From the NCBI GenBank assembly GCA_024234165.1, contig JACKOP010000005.1, positions 234,078 through 298,077 on the forward strand: 64,000 bases of DNA, given 5' to 3'. The DNA is from Pseudomonadales bacterium. Its GTDB lineage: Bacteria > Pseudomonadota > Gammaproteobacteria > Pseudomonadales > UBA5518. Below, in pieces: positions 2,876 to 38,443 of the stretch. Below the pieces are notes generated by a model. That model made no database searches and had not been told where the DNA came from. It saw only the letters and a list, made by a program, of their open reading frames with translations. Position 1 is the first letter of the stretch, and every line of letters starts with the position of its first letter. Position numbers and translations under genes: made by a program.

Positions 2876-4540
<1,665 letters not shown>

Positions 4541-4558: not shown

Positions 4559-4775
4559 GTAGGTCGGGTTTCAACCCATGTAGGTCGGGTTTCAACCCGA
4601 CAGGTGCCCGATCGGAGGCATACATCGTCGGCATGAATGCCGACCTACGCCCAACGCATGAATGCCGACCTACGCCCAACGCATGAATGCCGACCTACAC
4701 CCAACGCATGAATGCCGACCTACACCCAACGCATGAATGCCGGCCTGCGCCCAACGCGCGAATGCCGGCCTACGG
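4559..4775. repeat. REP-like hairpin cluster plus a 25-bp tandem array
   Basis: Two copies of GTAGGTCGGGTTTCAACCC (4559 and 4580). They are followed by about 5.8 tandem copies of GCATGAATGCCGACCTACGCCCAAC starting at 4631. Confidence 0.85.
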
Positions 4776-5237
4776 GGCCGTACTCCACGGCATGATCGGC
4801 ACGGTGGAGATCGAATTCTGCGGCGAACCCTCGATCAGCCGATCCGAATAGCTGAGGTAGACCAGCGTATTGTTCGGCCGGTCGAAGAAACGCACCACCT
4901 GCAGCCGCTTGAACACCAGCGAGCGGCTCTCCCGGAACACATCCTCGCCGTCCTCCAGCTTGCCGCGGATCGTGATCGGACCGACCTGGCGGCATGCGAT
5001 CGCTGCATCCGACGTGTCCTCGGCAAGACCAACGGCACCCTTCACACCACCGGTCACGGCACGGCTGACGTGACACACAACACCATCGACCTTCGGATCA
5101 CGAAAGGATTCGATACAGATCTTGTCGTTGGGTCCGACCCACTTGAACACGGTCGACACGCACCCGACCTCGTCGGCATGCACCCCGCAGGCCAAAGCCG
5201 CAAGGACGAGCACCCCGACACTCCGACACGGCTTCAT
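4770..5237 (-). CDS. creA: CreA family periplasmic protein
   Basis: Starts MKPCRSVGVLVLAALACGVHA (signal peptide). Carries the CreA-like motifs VSTVFKWVGPNDKI, CHVSRAVTGGVKG, LAEDTSDAAIACRQVGPI and SISTVPIMPW. Confidence 0.85.
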   Translation of the reverse strand: MKPCRSVGVLVLAALACGVHADEVGCVSTVFKWVGPNDKICIESFRDPKVDGVVCHVSRAVTGGVKGAVGLAEDTSDAAIACRQVGPITIRGKLEDGEDVFRESRSLVFKRLQVVRFFDRPNNTLVYLSYSDRLIEGSPQNSISTVPIMPWSTAP

Positions 5238-5756: not shown

Positions 5757-5951
5757 ATGCGAACCAACATTGTAATTGACGACGAGCTCATGAAGGACAC
5801 CCTTCGGGTCACGGGGCTGAGGACCAAGCGGGAGGTAGTCGAGCTCGGTCTTCGTACCATCCTTCGTCTCGACCAGCAAGCGCAGGTGCGCAGGCTACGG
5901 GGCAAGCTTGCGTGGGAGGGCGACCTCGAGGCCATGAGAACAGACAAGTGA
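5757..5951 (+). CDS. vapB: type II antitoxin, VapB (DUF2191-like)
   Basis: 64 aa, MRTNIVIDDELMKDTLRVTGLRTKREVVELGLR. Its stop overlaps the PIN gene start. Confidence 0.8.
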   Translation: MRTNIVIDDELMKDTLRVTGLRTKREVVELGLRTILRLDQQAQVRRLRGKLAWEGDLEAMRTDK

Positions 5952-6349
5952 TTCTGGTTGACTCCAGCGTGTGGATCGACTTCTTTCGGGGAAAATCGAA
6001 TCCACAAGTCGAACGCCTGGACGCCTTGCTCGGGAATGAGCCTCTAGCCATTGGCGACCTCATACTAACCGAGGTCCTCCAGGGTTTCACATCTGATCGA
6101 GATTTTAACGAAGCACGAAAGATGCTGGATGCGTTCACACTCGTGAAATTGGGCGGAAAGGACATTGCCATTGAAGCAGCGCGAAATTTCCGTCTGCTCC
6201 GCGCTCAAGGCATAACGGTTCGGAAGACGATAGACACGATCATCGCGACGCGCTGCATCGTTAGCGGCTATTCGCTGCTGCACTCCGACCGCGATTTCGA
6301 TGCATTCGCAGAACACATCGGGCTCAGGGTAGTTTCCTTGAAAACCTGA
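5948..6349 (+). CDS. vapC: type II toxin, PIN-domain ribonuclease VapC
   Basis: GTG start overlapping the vapB stop (GTGA). VILVDSSVWIDFFRG ... LLHSDRDFD carries the PIN acidic residues. Confidence 0.85.
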   Translation: MILVDSSVWIDFFRGKSNPQVERLDALLGNEPLAIGDLILTEVLQGFTSDRDFNEARKMLDAFTLVKLGGKDIAIEAARNFRLLRAQGITVRKTIDTIIATRCIVSGYSLLHSDRDFDAFAEHIGLRVVSLKT

Positions 6350-6562
6350 CCCTGGTCAGACCCGACACGATTCATTCCCATGCTGATGGCGGCGTCTTCA
6401 AGGGGTGTCGGCGAATAAAGTTCTCCAGCTCCCACCACTGAAGGTGGAGATCACAAAGTATCTGTTGAGCGACTCCCGCCTCCCGCGTTTGCCGTTCGCC
6501 GAATCGCGACGATACTATGCAGCAGAGTCCTGTAGTCCCGCTGATCGAGGAGAACGCGCGCA

Positions 6563-6922
6563 ATGAGCGATTTCGTTTCGTATTCCCGGATCGAGAACGA
6601 ACTGGCACCAGGGCTGCGCAACAGCCTGAACCATGCCGAATCGGTGGGCGACGTGAAGAACTTCTTCAACTACACCGTGCGGGAGCTGCTCGAGCGAACG
6701 CTCGGCGACGATATCGGCCTCGAGTACGAGGACATCACGCTCGCCAGCGACGGCGAGACTTTCACGGTCAGTGAGCGCCTGCGCAGTCACAGCGCGTTCG
6801 CGAACGCAACACAGTCATCGGACCTGAACGCGATCCTCGGCCGTTTTGCGCTGGCTGCCCAACATCGGCTGCGCCATCTCGAAGGACATCCGGAACGCAC
6901 GAACGCGAAGATCCGCGGCTAG
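6563..6922 (+). CDS. hypothetical protein
   Basis: 119-aa ORF with a GAGGAG Shine-Dalgarno 10 nt upstream. I recognise no family. Confidence 0.5.
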   Translation: MSDFVSYSRIENELAPGLRNSLNHAESVGDVKNFFNYTVRELLERTLGDDIGLEYEDITLASDGETFTVSERLRSHSAFANATQSSDLNAILGRFALAAQHRLRHLEGHPERTNAKIRG

Positions 6923-6940
6923 CGCGCATGGCAGCGCGCC

Positions 6941-8302
6941 TCACAGCGCCGCCAGCGCCTCGGACAATCGCGTCACGCCGACGATCTCCATGCCGTCGAT
7001 CGGCTTGCGCGGCACGTTGGCCAGCGGGACGATCGCGCGCGTGAACCCGTGCTTGGCGGCTTCCGCCAGTCGTTCGCCGCCGCTGGGAACGGGGCGGATC
7101 TCGCCGGCGAGGCCGACTTCACCGAAGCTGACCAGGCCGGCGTCGATGCGCCGATCGCGGTAGCTGGAGACGATCGCGAGCAGCAGCGCAAGGTCAGCAG
7201 CAGTCTCGCCGACCTTGATGCCACCGACGACGTTCGCGAACACGTCCTGGTCACCGAGCTGCATGCCGCCGTGACGGTGCAGCACCGCGAGCAACAGTGC
7301 GAGCCGGTTCTGGTCCACACCGACCGCCACACGGCGCGGATTCGCACCGAGGCTGTCGTCGACCAGCGCCTGGATTTCGACCAGCAGCGGTCGTGTCCCC
7401 TCCCAGACCACCATCACGACGCTGCCCGGGGCGATGTCGGTGCCGCGCGAGAGAAAGATGGCCGAAGGGTTGCGCACTTCGCGCATGCCACGATCGGTCA
7501 TCGCGAACACGCCGAGCTCGTTCACCGCGCCAAAGCGGTTCTTGCCCGCACGCAGCGCCCGAAAGCGGCTGTCGCCTTCCTCCTCGAGCATGATCGAGCA
7601 GTCGATGATGTGCTCCAGCACCTTGGGTCCGGCGAGCGTGCCGTCCTTCGTGACGTGTCCGACGAGGAACAGCGCGCTGCCGGCAGACTTCGCAAACCGG
7701 GTGAAACGGGTCGCACTTTCGCGCACCTGCGATACGCCGCCGGGCGCCGACGGCACATCGTCACAGTGCACGACCTGTACCGAATCGACCACCATCACGC
7801 GCGGCGCGAACTGCGCCGTCACCTCGAGGATCGCCTCGACGCTGGTCTCGGCAAGCATGCGCAGGCGGTCGGTCGGCAACCCCAGTCGGTGCGCTCGCAG
7901 CGCAACCTGTTGCAGCGACTCTTCGCCCGTCACGTAGAGCGCATCCATCTGTTGCGACAACGCGCACATCACCTGCAGCAGCAGCGTACTCTTGCCGGCA
8001 CCAGGCTGGCCGCCGATCAGATTCACCGACCCGGGCACGATGCCGCCGCCCAGCACGCGGTCGAACTCGACGTAGCCGGTCGAGAAACGTGGGACCTCGG
8101 CGAGGTCGATCTGATCCAGCGTCTGCAGCGCCGTCACATCACCCGCATAACCGCCGCGGCGCGTTGCGGTGCCGCGCGGCGCACCGGGCTCGACGAACTG
8201 GGTCATGGTGTTCCAGGCGCCGCAATCCGGGCATTGTCCGGCCCACTTGGCCTGCTCCGAACCGCAATCCTGGCACACATAGACGACTCTGGACTTTGCC
8301 AC
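6941..8302 (-). CDS. radA: DNA repair protein RadA/Sms
   Basis: Zinc-finger N-terminus CQDCGSEQAKWAGQCPDCGAWNT, Walker A GGQPGAGKSTLLLQ, and a Lon-like C-terminus. Confidence 0.97.
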   Translation of the reverse strand: MAKSRVVYVCQDCGSEQAKWAGQCPDCGAWNTMTQFVEPGAPRGTATRRGGYAGDVTALQTLDQIDLAEVPRFSTGYVEFDRVLGGGIVPGSVNLIGGQPGAGKSTLLLQVMCALSQQMDALYVTGEESLQQVALRAHRLGLPTDRLRMLAETSVEAILEVTAQFAPRVMVVDSVQVVHCDDVPSAPGGVSQVRESATRFTRFAKSAGSALFLVGHVTKDGTLAGPKVLEHIIDCSIMLEEEGDSRFRALRAGKNRFGAVNELGVFAMTDRGMREVRNPSAIFLSRGTDIAPGSVVMVVWEGTRPLLVEIQALVDDSLGANPRRVAVGVDQNRLALLLAVLHRHGGMQLGDQDVFANVVGGIKVGETAADLALLLAIVSSYRDRRIDAGLVSFGEVGLAGEIRPVPSGGERLAEAAKHGFTRAIVPLANVPRKPIDGMEIVGVTRLSEALAAL

Positions 8303-25535: not shown

Positions 25536-25589
25536 GCATAACGAATAGGGATAGGTCGCGCGCAGCCGCGACCTGATCCCGGGTTGAAC
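25536..25589 (+). other. attC recombination site of the R-M cassette
   Basis: GCATAAC-GAATAGGGATAGGTCGCG-CGCAGC-CGCGACCTGATCCCGG-GTTGAAC. The R'' GCATAAC is the complement of the cassette start G|TTATGC at 23624-23630. Confidence 0.85.
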
Positions 25590-25813
25590 AAGCCCGTGCC
25601 CTGGAGTGGCGAACGCTTTTTTATAGGGGAAAGCTTTTCGGACGTGTGAGGGCATCGTTGCCCGATCAGGCGGATGATTTTCACCAGACGAACGCGGCCC
25701 GCACCCGCGAGCGCAGCGTGTCTTGCCTGTCTGGATCCATCAGTGGCGCGAGGTCCTCCTCGGGAGTGGATTGCCGGCGAGCACACCACGCTCTCCGGGC
25801 CAGCGGATCATGT
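25584..25813 (-). mobile_element. truncated second copy of the recombinase/IS91 unit (transposase-distal end only)
   Basis: It is the reverse complement of about 31300-31536, with few mismatches. IS66 cuts it at 25814. Confidence 0.75.
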
Positions 25814-25834
25814 GTAAGCGGTCAAACGACGCCG

Positions 25835-28288: not shown

Positions 28289-28876
28289 CGCCTGATGGCG
28301 ATGCTCGAGGGCTGCGCAGAGCTCACGCTCGAGCGGCTGAACGAGGCCACGCAGGCCTGGGTCGAGATGGAGTACAACCGCCGTTCTCACAGCGAACTCG
28401 GCTGTTCTCCGCTGGCACGCTACGGCGACGGCACCGATGTCGGACGCGAGTGCCCCGGGAGCGAGCGGCTGCGCCAGGCGTTTCGCACCGAAGCCGTGCG
28501 CACCCAGCGGCGCTCCGACGGCACGTTCTCGCTCGAAGGCACACGCTTCGAGGTGCCCTCGCGCTACCGCCACCTCGCACGGCTCACGGTGCGCTACGCG
28601 CGCTGGGACCTGCGCACGGTCGAGCTGATCGATCCGCTGAGCGGGACGCCGATCTGTGCGCCCTACCCGCTGGACAAGACGGCTCACGCCAGCGCCGCGA
28701 GGCGCCTGCACGCAGTGCGCACGCCTCCGGTACCCGTGCTGCCCGACCCGCCGGCGCACAGCCCCATGGCGCCGCTGTTGCGCGCGCTCATGGTCGAGTA
28801 TGCCGCCACCGGGCTGCCCCCGGCCTACGTGCCCCTGTCCAACGACGCACCCCTTGCCGAGGATCCGCTGCGATGA
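28289..28876 (+). pseudogene. 5'-truncated Mu/Tn552-like DDE transposase (end of rve core plus Mu-transposase C-terminal domain)
   Basis: Begins abruptly at the IS66 end. WVEMEYNRRSHSELG and LTVRYARWDLRTVELID motifs. Confidence 0.65.
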
Positions 28877-29199
28877 ACAAGCAACTGCTCGCCCTTTATG
28901 GTCTGAAGTGGAATCCCTTCTCGCCCGAACTGCCCACCGAGGCGCTGCGCCTCACGCCGGCGGTGGAGAACTTCGCCTGGCGTATCGAGCACGCGCTCGT
29001 GCGCGAAGGCGGCTTCGCGCTGATCAGCGGCGATGTCGGTACGGGCAAGAGCGTGGCGCTGCGTCTGATCGCCGAGCGCCTCGCCCCCGTGCCGGATCTG
29101 ACCGTTGCCGCACTCACGCACCCGAGCGCCAACCTCGCCGACTTCTACCGCGAGCTCGGTGATCTGTTCGCCGTGGAGCTGCGCCCGCACAACCGCTGG
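28873..29199 (+). pseudogene. ExeA/TniB-like AAA ATPase, N-terminal fragment
   Basis: MNKQLLALYGLKWNPFSPELP, with Walker A GDVGTGKS. The reading frame is broken after ...RPHNRW by the 29200-31577 insertion. Confidence 0.75.
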
Positions 29200-29311
29200 T
29201 TGAACGAAGCCGCTTCGCGGCAGGAACAAGACGAGAAGAACGAGACGCCAAAACCGGGAAACTTCTCCGGCACCCCCAGGCCCGGGTGTGCATCACCAAA
29301 GGAGAAGCGAC

Positions 29312-30217
29312 ATGGATTCATCGGAGCAAACCCGTTTTGACGCACTGTACGCGAAGCATCTTAGAGCACTGAAGCTTCAAGGCAAGGCAGCGAAGACGAT
29401 CGATGGTTACGCACGAGTGCTGCGCCGGGTAGCCGCACACTTCGATCGCTGTCCGGATCGACTGGACGCGGAAGACTTCAAGTCCTACTTCGCCTCGCTG
29501 ATCGACGAGCGATCGTGGAGCCTGGTGAAGATCGAACGCTGCGGACTGCAGTTCTTCTACGAACACGTCCTGGAGCGGGAGTGGCCGTGGGTGGGCATGC
29601 TCAAGCCGCCGGTGGTGCACGCGCTGCCCGATGTGCTCAGCGTCGACGAGGTCGCACAGATCATCCGGGCGAGTCGCGAGCGGCGCTACCGGACGTTCTG
29701 GCTGACGACCTACAGCCTGGGCCTGCGTCTGGGCGAAGCGCTGCGGTTGCGGATCGGTGATATCGACAGCGCCCGTGCCCAGGTCCATATCCGCAGCGGC
29801 AAGGGGCACAAGGACCGCTTCGTGGTGCTGCCGGCACTGACCCTGCAGTGCCTGCGCCGCTACTGGCGTGATCATCGCCACCATGAGCTGTTGTTTCCAG
29901 GGCGTGCTGGACCGCAGGGTATTCCGGCTGCCACCTTCATGGATCGCGGCAGCACCCAGAAGGCGTTTGCCCGTGTCGTGGCCGACTGCGGCATCCGCAA
30001 GCGGGTGTCGATCCACAGTCTTCGCCATGCCTACGCCACCCACCTCATCGAAGTCGGCCTGAATCTGCGCGGTGTGCAGGAACTGCTCGGTCATGCCTGC
30101 CCGAAAACCACGGCGCGCTATGTGCACATGACGGACAAGTGCCGTGATGATCGCCGCGTGCTGATCGACGGCTTGATGGGCGAGTTGCACCAGCGTCTGC
30201 GGGAGGCTCGGTCATGA
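29312..30217 (+). CDS. tyrosine recombinase (XerD/IntI-like, without the IntI-specific insertion)
   Basis: AAGGAG sits 7 nt upstream of the ATG. LQFFYEHVLEREWPW, GLRLGEALRLRIGDID, GKGHKDR, SLRHAYATHL, LLGHACPKTTARYVH (R-K-H-R-H-Y set). Confidence 0.85.
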   Translation: MDSSEQTRFDALYAKHLRALKLQGKAAKTIDGYARVLRRVAAHFDRCPDRLDAEDFKSYFASLIDERSWSLVKIERCGLQFFYEHVLEREWPWVGMLKPPVVHALPDVLSVDEVAQIIRASRERRYRTFWLTTYSLGLRLGEALRLRIGDIDSARAQVHIRSGKGHKDRFVVLPALTLQCLRRYWRDHRHHELLFPGRAGPQGIPAATFMDRGSTQKAFARVVADCGIRKRVSIHSLRHAYATHLIEVGLNLRGVQELLGHACPKTTARYVHMTDKCRDDRRVLIDGLMGELHQRLREARS

Positions 30218-30250
30218 CCCAAGCCCTCGCCCCCCCTGCGTCTGGCCGAG

Positions 30251-31285
30251 GTGTTCGACGCCGGACACGCCGCCCTGATGGCGCGCTACGGAGCGCGCCT
30301 GCACCCCCGACAACACCAGGCGATGGCCGCCATCCGGGGCTGCCGAAGCGGTGAGCTCGGTGAACTGCACTGGCGCTGTCCCGACTGCAGTGCACGACAC
30401 CACACGCCCCGCTCCTGTGGTCATCGCAGCTGCCCGGCCTGCCAGAACCACTGCACCTCGCAGTGGCTCGATCGGCAACGCCGTAAGCTCCTGCCCGTGG
30501 ACTACTTCATGGTGACCTTTACCTTGCCGGCACCCTTGCGTGCCGCCGCGCAGGCGTACCCCGAAACCGTCTATGCCGCCTTGTTTCGCGCCGCCTCGCA
30601 GACCCTCAACGGTTTCGCGACGCGAAAGCTCAAGGCGGAACTCGGCCAATGCGCGGTACTGCACACCCACAACCGTCGTCTCGATCTGCACCCGCACGTG
30701 CACGTCATCGTGCCCGGAGGCGCAATCGATGCGCGGCGCCGGCAGTGGCGAAAACTCTCCGGGCGTTACCTCTTCAACGCCTTTGCCCTGGCCCGGGTGT
30801 TCCGCGCCCGTATGCTGCAGGCCCTGCAGCTCGCCGGCGTGCCGATCCCTGTCGGCCTGCCGCCGAAATGGGTGGTCGACTGTCGCCGTGTCGGTCGTGG
30901 CGAGCCGGCATTGCAGTACCTCTCGCGCTACCTCTATCGGGGTGTCATCCGCGAGCGCGACCTCCTCGACTACGACCGCCTCGCCGGCACCGTCACCTTC
31001 CGCTACCGTGACGCCAAGACCCGCCAGCCCGCACAGCGCACCCTGCCCATCGCCGAGTTCCTGTGGCGCGTGCTCGCCCACGTCCTGCCGACCGGATTCC
31101 GTCGTGTGCGCGAGTACGGATTCCTGCACTGCCGAGCCAGGCGACGCCTCGTTCTCGTGCAACTCGTCTTGCATGTGCTGGTCCAGGCGGCAACGTTGCG
31201 ACCACGCCCACCGCTGTGTTGCATGCGCTGCCATACCCCGATGATCGTCGTCGCCGTCACCAAACGCCGCAGACCCGACGGCTGA
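30251..31285 (+). CDS. IS91-family HUH-Y2 rolling-circle transposase (N-terminus uncertain or frameshifted)
   Basis: Zn-finger CPDCSARHHTPRSCGHRSCPACQ, HUH motif HPHVHVIVPGG, Y2 motif YLSRYLYRG. An ATG at 30214 (ATGA with the upstream stop) is out of frame by one C in a C7 run. Confidence 0.85.
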   Translation: MFDAGHAALMARYGARLHPRQHQAMAAIRGCRSGELGELHWRCPDCSARHHTPRSCGHRSCPACQNHCTSQWLDRQRRKLLPVDYFMVTFTLPAPLRAAAQAYPETVYAALFRAASQTLNGFATRKLKAELGQCAVLHTHNRRLDLHPHVHVIVPGGAIDARRRQWRKLSGRYLFNAFALARVFRARMLQALQLAGVPIPVGLPPKWVVDCRRVGRGEPALQYLSRYLYRGVIRERDLLDYDRLAGTVTFRYRDAKTRQPAQRTLPIAEFLWRVLAHVLPTGFRRVREYGFLHCRARRRLVLVQLVLHVLVQAATLRPRPPLCCMRCHTPMIVVAVTKRRRPDG

Positions 31286-31529
31286 GGCAACGTTCGCGGA
31301 TCGCCACATGATCCGCTGGCCCGGAGAGCGTGGCGTGCTCGCCGGCAATCCACTCCCGAGGAGGACCTCGCGCCACCGATGGATCCAGCCAGGCAAGACG
31401 TGCTGCGCTCGCGGGTGCGGGCCGCGTTCGCCTGGTGAAAATCATTCCGCCTGATCGGGCAACGACGCCCTCACGCGTCTGAAAAGCTTTCCCCTATAAA
31501 AAGCGTTCGCCACTCCGGGGCACGGGCTT

Positions 31530-31577
31530 GTTCAACCCGGGATCAGGTCGCGGCTGCGCGCGACCTATCCCTATTCG
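31530..31577 (+). other. attC-like site at the end of the recombinase/IS91 unit
   Basis: GTTCAAC-CCGGGATCAGGTCGCGG-CTGCGC-GCGACCTATCCCTATTC-G. G plus the unit's first 6 nt TTGAAC gives GTTGAAC, the complement of GTTCAAC. Confidence 0.7.
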
Positions 31578-32052
31578 ATGGGCTTCAAGGCGCTGCGTAC
31601 CCGCTGGATCGCCCATCTGGAGAGCACGCGGCTTCGCCCCGTGCTGCTGATCGACGAGGCGCAACAGGTCGCCCCGCTCGTGCTCTCGGAGTTGCGCCTG
31701 CTCGCCTCGGCGCACTTCGACTCGCGCAGCCTGCTGAGCGTCGTGCTCGCCGGCGACCAGCGTCTGAACGAGTTGCTGCGCCGCGACGAACTCCTGCTGC
31801 TCGGTTCGCGCATCCGCGCACGCCTCTCGCTGGAGTACGCCAGCCGCGAGGAACTGCTGGCCTGCCTGAAGCACCTGCTCGCAAGCGCCGGCGCCCCGCT
31901 CTGATGACACCCGAGCTGATGCACACCGTCTGCGACCACGCCATGGGTAACTACCGTGCGCTCACCACCATGGCCGCGGAACTGCTCGCCGCCGCCGCGC
32001 AGCGCGAGCTCGTCCAGCTCGACGAGAAGCTGTACCTCGCGGTGTTCACGCC
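31578..32052 (+). pseudogene. ExeA/TniB-like AAA ATPase, C-terminal fragment with an additional frameshift near 31895
   Basis: GFKALRTRWIAHLESTRLRPVLLIDEAQ (Walker B) continues the N-terminal fragment. The frame changes at ...SAGAPL* / MTPELMHTVCDHAMGNYRAL. Confidence 0.65.
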
Positions 32053-32445
32053 CCGGGGCAATCCGCCGGCACGCGCCGCACCCGGCTCACCAGCGCTTGA
32101 GCCGGCAACCATGAAATCGTCCCGGCACCACCCCATCGAATTCCCGAGCAGCTCAGCGACGAGGGCGCGGCACACATCCTCGACTTCCTCTACGAGGTGA
32201 TCCGCGCCTTCGAGTCGCGCTACTTCGTGCAGATCCGTCGCCACCATCGCCACACCGCCGCTGAGTACGCCGCCCAGCGCGCCGAGCGCACCCAGCTCGA
32301 ACTGCCCTCACAATCCCCGACGAGCCGTCCGACCCGGTCTTCTGAGCCATCGTCAGACCGTCGCCACAGCGCCTCGCAGCCGCCGGGCGCTGCGGTTGCG
32401 TCGCACCCAAAACGCGGTCGACACCGGCAGCGCCAATGCCGGACA

Positions 32446-36894: not shown

Positions 36895-36956
36895 AGCGGC
36901 TTACCTTGGAACCATATTGGAACCAATATGGTATCTCTGGGCGCCGGGCGGAGCAA

Positions 36957-37010
36957 CCCTAACGAATAGGGATAGGTCGCGCGCCGCCGCGACCTGAGCC
37001 CGGGTTAGGG
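36957..37010 (+). other. attC site of the vapBC::IS66 cassette
   Basis: CCCTAAC-GAATAGGGATAGGTCGCG-CGCCGC-CGCGACCTGAGCCCGG-GTTAGGG. R'' is the complement of the cassette start G|TTAGGG at 33760. Confidence 0.88.
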
Positions 37011-37715: not shown

Positions 37716-37769
37716 CCCTGACAAATAGGGATAGCCCGCGCGCAACCGCGACCTGATCCCGGATTGAAC
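37716..37769 (+). other. attC site of the PIN/AbrB cassette (slightly degenerate)
   Basis: CCCTGAC-AAATAGGGATAGCCCGCG-CGCAAC-CGCGACCTGATCCCGG-ATTGAAC. R'' has one mismatch to the complement of the cassette start TTAGGG. R' has A in place of G. Confidence 0.7.
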
Positions 37770-37830
37770 AAGCCCGTGCCCCGGAGTGCCGGGCCAAAGG
37801 TTTTCCAGTCCGGCAAGCCTTGGCGGCAGG

Positions 37831-38253: not shown

Positions 38254-38443
38254 GGATTTCCCCTCATCGATGCCGCTTTCGTGCAGTTGGTATTTGTATA
38301 CGTGCTGATCCGTAATGCAAGCAATCGCCATTTGCCGCTGCTGTCTTCGCTGTTCACCCGCGCGCCGACGTGCGCCATGTGTTTCTTCTTTGGTGATGCA
38401 TACCCCGGGATGAAGCGCTCGCGCGGGTCCGTGCCCGACTGAC

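Follow-up and report, generated by a model that had tools for sequence, protein, structure and literature searches.

An IS91-family element with an integron integrase-related recombinase and putatively attC-mimicking ends

A 64,000-nt stretch of the Pseudomonadales contig JACKOP010000005.1 (assembly GCA_024234165.1, positions 234,078 to 298,077; hereafter the window, whose own numbering is used throughout) encodes at 29312-30217 (+) a tyrosine recombinase of 301 amino acids that profile, alignment, fold and tree relate to the integron integrases (IntI), though without the insertion that is specific to these enzymes. The gene is part of a complete 2,378-bp IS91-family element at 29200-31577 (+), which is composed of the recombinase gene, a transposase gene and an attC-like end and was delimited using contigs with an empty site, an independent relative from the same family and models of its two ends. 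Taking all lines of evidence together, we regard it as probable that we are looking at the IntI-related recombinase of an IS91 element that both mimics and targets attC sites, and that this element moves as a circle generated by its HUH enzyme and subsequently integrated by the recombinase.

A discrete two-gene insertion in an ExeA-like gene

The stop codon of the recombinase gene lies at 30217, and homology to a co-oriented IS91-family Y2-HUH transposase begins at 30236. This second gene spans 30236-31285 (+), with an open reading frame (ORF) from GTG 30251, and its product scores 345 bits with the NCBIfam model NF033538 (cut-off 125) and carries the Pfam domains Zn_Tnp_IS91 and Y2_Tnp. The gene at 29312-30217 encodes the resident recombinase of an IS91-family element with two genes, of which it comes first. 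It is not located beside an attI site or a cassette array but in a 2.4-kb unit, directly 5' of the IS91 transposase gene and inside a gene for an ATPase.

The interrupted gene encodes an ExeA-like ATPase with an AAA_22 domain (Pfam), and empty-site contigs confirm it as the target. Its 5' part is found at 28864-29199 (+) and its 3' continuation, which covers AAA_22 positions 69-130, at 31578-31904 (+), and the two parts join in frame as TGG|ATG. The uninterrupted gene is present in contigs of four independent wastewater or activated-sludge metagenomes that connect 29198 to 31577 and omit exactly 2378 bases, with one G being ambiguous. Sequencing depth at these empty sites is 25-166 and thus above that of the element, and one run additionally holds both occupied junctions. 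Because the empty site lacks precisely these 2378 bases, 29200-31577 is a discrete unit that was inserted into CTGG|ATGGGC without duplicating its target. An earlier reading made from the letters alone (the sequence-only reading) had described this unit as a cassette. Its exact cassette-style boundaries and attC-like hairpin are indeed there, but the unit is an IS91-family element and no ordinary cassette.

Two further observations concern the target gene. Over 28900-31900 in the sludge and wastewater metagenome runs X1, X2, X4 and X10, the intact ExeA-like gene reaches 2-20 times the depth of the element, which suggests that the target gene belongs to an abundant and perhaps mobile element of which only a minority carries the insertion. 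Moreover, its reading frame shifts at 31904, where the ORFs at 31578-31904 and 31904-32200 share an ATGA, which could reflect either another defect of the target gene or an arrangement with two ORFs.

An IntI-like recombinase without the IntI-specific insertion

The list of ORFs in the window contains a 309-codon frame at 29288-30217 (+) that is followed by a frame of 344 codons at 30251-31285 (+). An alignment of 21 homologues, including the window protein, backs ATG 29312 as the start of the recombinase, while the in-frame GTG further upstream at 29288 is not conserved, so that the gene called at 29312-30217 in the sequence-only reading proved to be real and intact. Pfam assigns residues 20-100 to Phage_int_SAM_4 (PF13495) and residues 116-283 to Phage_integrase (PF00589), which amounts to the simple two-domain build of a SAM-like N-terminal domain and a catalytic domain without an arm-binding domain. 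Across the same alignment, R139, E142, K167, H235, R238, H261 and Y270 are invariant or nearly so, and all of the RKHRHY residues required of a tyrosine recombinase are kept (R139, K167, H235, R238, H261 and Y270). The AlphaFold2 (AF2) model of the protein reaches a predicted local distance difference test (pLDDT) score of 84.7. With these features, the product is predicted to be an intact, active-looking tyrosine recombinase.

Comparisons with reference proteins placed IntI first by every method that we used. In BLASTP against IntI1, whose sequence was taken from plasmid NZ_LT985243.1, the recombinase scored 102 bits at 30% identity with 39 gap positions grouped between residues 182 and 203, compared to 74 and 72 bits against E. 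coli XerC and XerD, respectively. Its best match in NCBIfam is the integron integrase model TIGR02249 (145.7 bits in two stretches, under the cut-off of 265), ahead of XerA (138.5), XerD (128.7; cut-off 329.6) and XerC (120.5; cut-off 335). With a score of 102.7 against a cut-off of 435 for NF011946, it also falls short of the curated IntI family. VchIntIA (2a3v) was the first match in a PDB sequence search (92 bits in two stretches, vs. 84 bits in one stretch for XerA), and Foldseek with the AF2 model likewise ranked 2a3v first (E = 2.9e-14, template modelling (TM) score 0.64) and XerA second. The proposed likeness to IntI is therefore well borne out, and the IntI1 segments that the sequence-only reading had quoted agree with the actual IntI1 of NZ_LT985243.1.

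The gaps and split matches coincide with a difference in length. In the alignment to 2a3v, the query has 33 amino acids where IntI carries 69, and the spacing between the K(D/E)R patch and box II (HxLRH) is 64 amino acids here and 61-67 in 27 family members, vs. 99-100 in 8 IntI proteins, 62 in XerC and 66 in XerD. An IntI-specific insertion of ca. 35 amino acids is thus, judged by alignment, absent from the product of 29312-30217, which agrees with the earlier proposal that the extra helix of IntI is missing. In IntI, this extra domain with its I2 helix reads the extrahelical bases of attC. The protein-level point that IS91-associated recombinases are closest to IntI and yet lack the insertion is already published: the authors defined an "integron-like" subgroup composed of IntI and recombinases of IS91 and IS3 elements and found the IntI insertion to be missing in the latter (Smyshlyaev, Barabas and Bateman, 10.1101/542381).

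We placed the recombinase in a maximum-likelihood tree of 79 rows comprising 27 IS91-linked recombinases, 40 more distant representatives, 8 IntI proteins as well as XerC, XerD, FimB and FimE of E. coli, with branch support from the Shimodaira-Hasegawa-like approximate likelihood-ratio test (SH-aLRT). The IS91-linked recombinases form a clade of 28 rows (SH-aLRT 96) that holds all 27 of them and one other representative; the rows closest to the window recombinase are L002 and P0011 (labels of the L0xx type denote the loci of relatives). IntI proteins form one clade (SH-aLRT 99), and both groups lie within a 75-row clade (SH-aLRT 97) that is separated from XerC/D by a branch of 1.02. In line with the kinship suggested by the sequence-only reading, neither the tree nor the comparison of hidden Markov models clusters the recombinase firmly with XerC/D or phage integrases, and it groups with the IS91-linked recombinases instead. 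The possibility that it is an Xer homologue, i.e., a chromosome-dimer resolvase, was rejected based on scores below the cut-offs, gene context and the tree.

Element ends that resemble an attC site when joined

Both ends of the element are conserved and suggest how they might function together. The left terminus at 29200-29223 (+) consists of TTGAAC, which corresponds to an R' half-site, followed by a small hairpin (GAAGCCGC-TTC-GCGGCAG), and it was recognized with the end models. Folds and conservation define the attC-like right end at 31524-31577 (+), which is composed of GGGCTT, the R'' box GTTCAAC (31530-31536), a hairpin with one bulged base and CCTATTCG. Across the family, units begin with TTGAAC or TTGGAC followed by NAAGCCGC-NNN-GCGGCAG and finish with GGGCTT, a GTTCAAC or GTCCAAC box, the hairpin and CCTTATTYG. 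The rightmost 55 nt are 90-98% conserved compared to 74% for the rest of the unit, and the core of the right end is present in 4 copies in the window vs. 0 expected.

As at a cassette-type boundary, the first 6 nt of a unit complement its own R'' box. The window unit starts with TTGAAC and ends with G, and its internal R'' (GTTCAAC) complements G+TTGAAC. Among 50 units, position 3 of R'' covaries with position 4 of the left end (T/A 35, C/G 13, C/A 2 and T/G 0; Fisher p = 3e-10), and the TTGGAC variants are spread over several clades. Read by eye, this pairing goes on beyond the box between GGCTT and AAGCC, with compensatory variants. Once joined, the site folds on its bottom strand with a free energy (dG) of -16.5 (z -4). 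The fold comprises an R stem of 7 bp, a spacer that is unpaired over 5 vs. 2 nt, an L stem whose 3' arm carries one bulged base (G or T), and a short loop. When joined, the ends are thus predicted to form an attC-like hairpin, which we call the attC mimic. Selection on pairing across the junction would imply that the element passes through a circular or tandem single-stranded form.

Target sites and orientation

We collected 50 distinct junctions and restored and folded their targets using a constrained fold. According to these data, the family inserts at G|TT and leaves no duplication, with the R'' (inverse core) box of attC as its usual target and in inverted orientation relative to the cassette. 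In 44 of 47 junctions, the left flank ends with G, and the right flank (consensus TTAGGC) starts with T in 51 of 52 cases and has T as its second base in all 52, the only A in the first position being that of the window itself (G|AT). Approximately 17 of the restored targets are clean attC hairpins with their bulged bases on the junction-side arm, so that the orientation of the element reads the attC bottom strand, compared to a single clean case of the opposite, top-strand reading (L049). The gene context is similarly one-sided, with 28 junctions having a converging ORF only vs. 3 having a co-directional ORF only, and the stop codon of the converging ORF is often the TTA of the flank. At two loci of Cyanobium/Synechococcus (L049 and L061), the element directly follows the 3' end of a co-oriented intI gene or pseudogene, which differs from the inverted R'' rule.

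In the clearest case, a relative of the element, with a recombinase that is 53% identical, occupies 5891-8226 of the E. coli IncC plasmid NZ_LT985243.1 (L012). There, it is part of a class 1 integron with the order intI1 - aac(6')-Ib - aadA2 - cmlA1 - aadA1 - element - qacEdelta1 - sul1, and it interrupts the R'' box of the aadA1 attC, in inverted orientation and precisely at GTCTAA|C. Its two genes are annotated merely as "site-specific integrase" and "IS91 family transposase". The window itself holds a second copy of the element of which only the last 273 nt remain (25542-25814, -; 96-99% identical), cut by IS66 copy 1. This remnant abuts GCATAA|C, with which the adjacent restriction-modification cassette ends, and follows the family rule with the usual inverted R'' position. 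The full copy lies outside any attC, but its site CTGG|ATGGGC equals G|TTGGGC in 5 of 6 bases after the G. Here, the element has gone off target into a secondary site that resembles the usual one, within the ExeA-like gene.

These data bear on the proposal of the sequence-only reading that an IntI-type recombinase without the I2 helix, acting on a near-palindromic attC, would recombine either strand indiscriminately, a relaxed strand choice that had been deduced from the junctions of 29200-31577. The absence of the insertion would fit such behavior, and the GTTCAAC/GTTGAAC box is indeed nearly palindromic in the window copy. However, this palindromy is not conserved, since 13 of the 50 units have GTCCAAC/GTTGGAC, and the orientation of the family is strongly one-sided in both the folded targets and the ORF contexts. 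In addition, an insertion at G|AT in an ExeA-like gene is uninformative on strand choice. We therefore consider indiscriminate recombination very improbable; the choice of strand rather appears to be strict and reversed relative to the products of IntI.

We also considered that the unit might be a passive cassette that a host integron integrase moves in trans via the attC-like site, while the recombinase that it encodes plays no part in mobility or is otherwise used. The G|TT boundaries and the attC-like site would be compatible with this view, and relatives are found in integron arrays, with an intI gene or remnant within 10 kb in 9 loci. Even the G|AT of the window fits the GWT secondary sites of IntI1. 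However, cassettes inserted by IntI lie in direct orientation at R' or attI, whereas the family is found inverted at R''. Furthermore, the ends of the element are conserved across phyla despite very different types of host attC, both genes are conserved (with an ATGA or GTGA overlap in 52 of 96 cases, suggesting that they are often translationally coupled), and neither intI nor a paralogue of the recombinase is present in the 64-kb window. Passive mobility is thus quite improbable in our view. An ordinary integron cassette was rejected based on the inverted R'' orientation and the conserved gene pair.

A tentative two-enzyme route of transposition

Canonical members of the IS91 family (IS91, IS801 and IS1294 as well as their ISCR relatives) resemble the element in their Y2-HUH transposase equivalog, the lack of a target duplication, and CCTATACG followed by (TT)GAAC at the right end. 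Unlike this element, they have no recombinase or terminal hairpin and target only GTTC/CTTG but not attC. Specifically, the end of IS1294 reads ...TTTCCTATACGT|GAAC and the joined site of the recombinase-bearing family ...CCTTATACG|TTGAAC, so that a terminal CCTATACG(T)+GAAC motif is common to both. Because of this common motif, the right end of the element is probably homologous to oriIS. IS1294, which has no recombinase, does not form a hairpin at its end (dG -2.9, z +1.6), in contrast to the strong one of the element, and a hairpin as a general feature of IS91 oriIS was rejected on this single comparator. Hairpin and attC specificity therefore go together with the recombinase in this one comparison, which is our main argument that the hairpin would be the substrate of the recombinase.

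On this basis, we tentatively propose a single-strand pathway with two enzymes, possible though short of probable, in which the HUH enzyme makes a circle and the IntI-like recombinase without I2 integrates the folded junction of this circle into the opposite side or strand of attC. The HUH enzyme of IS91 yields a single-stranded circle. In the element described here, the Y2-HUH transposase would free a single-stranded circular copy via rolling-circle replication, and the circle junction would then fold into the attC mimic. The recombinase would perform an IntI-style single-strand exchange at G|TT between this mimic and a folded attC strand before replication resolves the product. Without the IntI insertion, the recombinase would depart from the strand rule of IntI, and the product would be the mirror image of a normal cassette insertion. 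Given that the inverted product joins the bottom strand of the element to the top strand of the array, the reaction would use the side or strand that IntI avoids, which is consistent with loss of the domain that reads extrahelical bases.

Canonical IS91 elements transpose by their HUH enzyme alone, and CTTG is one of the classical target tetranucleotides of IS91. It is therefore conceivable that the transposase does all cutting and joining by recognizing a hairpin followed by TTG|TT on single-stranded DNA, both at the ends of the element and in attC. The recombinase would then be an accessory factor that either resolves rolling-circle multimers or tandem copies at the junction like Xer or excises the element. 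This explanation would agree with the finding that left boundary, right boundary and targets all fit YTTG|TTRRRY with CTTG as left-flank consensus, and with the CCTATACG and GAAC that the right end has in common with the oriIS of IS1294 and its target. However, the classical tetranucleotide of IS91 adjoins the oriIS end downstream of tnpA, while CTTG is found at the opposite end here. The right flank of the element reads TTRRRY and not GAAC or CAAG, and GAAC is part of its own left end, which comes to lie beside the right end only once the two are joined. Moreover, the crossover point is exactly that of IntI, of which the recombinase appears to be the nearest relative, and hairpin and attC specificity co-occur with the recombinase, set against IS1294 without a hairpin. 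We thus view transposition by the HUH enzyme alone as rather unlikely.

Several points weigh against an attC-mimicking element that is integrated by an IntI-related recombinase. The uniform YTTG|TTRRRY pattern of boundaries and targets with its CTTG consensus fits a pure HUH mechanism as well. In the phylogeny, an approximately unbiased (AU) test on the root among IntI, Xer and the family did not reject the arrangement "family + Xer vs. IntI + Fim" (delta lnL 0.26, p = 0.50); for this reason, we describe IntI as what appears to be the closest of the named families in path length and in all measures of similarity, without a claim that the two are sister groups. The predicted hairpin differs from a textbook attC in its spacer of 5 vs. 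2 nt and its single bulged base, and no circle junction was found in the metagenome contigs that had revealed empty and occupied sites. Finally, the window copy, without the usual transposase start, may be impaired. The conserved ATG of the transposase gene, which overlaps the recombinase stop as ATGA, is off by +1 here, with a C7 run at 30230-30236. In this copy, the transposase frame equals the recombinase frame past the single TGA at 30215-30217 and opens only at CTG 30236 or 30242 or at GTG 30251. Contigs from four metagenomes are identical at 30214-30251, so the shift is not a sequencing error. Readthrough of the TGA at 30215-30217 would yield a fusion of recombinase and transposase.

Individual aspects of the proposed two-enzyme pathway are known from other systems. 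Integration of CTX-phi by XerC/D similarly proceeds via a folded hairpin of a single-stranded circle and the exchange of one strand pair that replication resolves, but it depends on host enzymes and dif, while the element brings along a recombinase and, presumably, also the enzyme that generates single strands. Site- and orientation-specific insertion into attC is also seen for the IS1111-attC group of the IS110 family and for group IIC-attC introns, though these use a DEDD transposase or a ribozyme with reverse transcriptase, target another position of attC and carry no attC mimic of their own. With IntI (e.g., IntI1 and VchIntIA), the recombinase has in common the SAM-like N-terminal domain and RKHRHY catalytic domain, the best sequence, profile and fold match and the crossover at G|TT within a site that folds into a hairpin and comprises R and L boxes as well as a bulged base. 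It differs from IntI by the missing domain of ca. 35 amino acids, the profile score below the cut-off (145.7 vs. 265) and insertions that mirror IntI products, and its gene resides next to an HUH transposase gene within a mobile unit, whereas intI lies beside attI and Pc.

The closest published counterparts are the simple "integron-like" tyrosine recombinases of IS91 and IS3 elements (10.1101/542381) and the two-ORF element ISShvi3 (PMC9229058), which match in gene pair and domain architecture. ISShvi3 beside an attC was described to give "a new gene cassette structure" (PMC9229058). Unlike these features, the attC-mimicking junction, the covariation of the ends and the inverted R'' rule for targeting attC were not described in the literature that we searched, with ISfinder and TnPedia outside this search.

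Distribution and implications

The relatives of the recombinase number in the thousands. A search of 1.8 billion representatives retrieved 1179 clusters of them at E <= 1e-30, and many relatives lie on contigs of ca. 2.37-2.40 kb. One of these is an independent contig of 2378 bp (L001) that is colinear with the window unit from end to end at 76% identity. Scanning species-representative genomes gave more than 580 matches in Gammaproteobacteria, Cyanobacteria, Desulfobacterota, Planctomycetota, Victivallales, Acidobacteriota and Chloroflexota. Based on a gap criterion, the transposase gene directly follows the recombinase gene in 77 of 96 recombinase matches, and the other 19 are either cut by contig ends (9) or short alignments (10). 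Using the end models, we found both termini in ca. 64 units of 2163-2490 bp, among them units of Gammaproteobacteria, Cyanobacteria, Desulfobacterota and Planctomycetota.

Hairpin sites of the element type are also present on their own. In the window, such solo sites are located at 36955-37006 (-) and 37721-37791 (-), behind an AbrB/PIN toxin-antitoxin pair and the gene of a small membrane protein, respectively. The membrane-protein unit retains ca. 35 nt of the element leader, as 38375-38408 resembles 29281-29315. Similar solo right ends are found at five loci of relatives (L064, L054, L038, L069 and L053). Such sites may derive from the element or represent cassettes that have acquired its site.

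Beyond what has been published, our analysis indicates that IS91-linked recombinases travel together with a conserved attC mimic and an enzyme that makes single-stranded DNA, and that they home to one exact position of attC in an orientation that IntI does not produce. If the two-enzyme pathway holds true, the family would be a natural experiment on how the extra domain of IntI sets strand selectivity and could plausibly be related to the ancestor of integron integrases and attC sites, while the solo hairpins behind unrelated genes would fit an element that seeds new cassette-like units. The share of the IntI-specific domain in strand choice, the cooperation of a tyrosine recombinase with a rolling-circle transposase and the link of such elements to the origin of integron integrases, attC sites and new cassettes thereby become testable questions. 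On the practical side, a clinical class 1 integron of an IncC plasmid harbors a relative in its aadA1 attC, which implies that the family can remodel resistance arrays, and tools for integron annotation may misread the element as a cassette.

Additional observations

At locus L010 (623-3989), a single ORF (3018-3908) lies between two oppositely oriented copies of the element, one of which precedes this ORF like a neighboring cassette, the other being located at its 3' end. Three loci (L003, L004 and L014, at ca. 1-1810) carry a group II intron (of the IIC type in L003 and L014) with its reverse transcriptase ORF on the minus strand, whose 5' end GTGTGC adjoins the left end of the element and replaces TTGAAC. 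Apparently, an attC-type intron has invaded the attC-like half-site of the element itself at these loci.

A megablast comparison of the unit with plasmids gave zero matches, and an Rfam scan of the window from 20 to 42 kb found nothing. Far from the element, the window additionally contains a tandem array of six 25-nt units (GCATGAATGCCGACCTACGCCCAAC) at 4606-4798.

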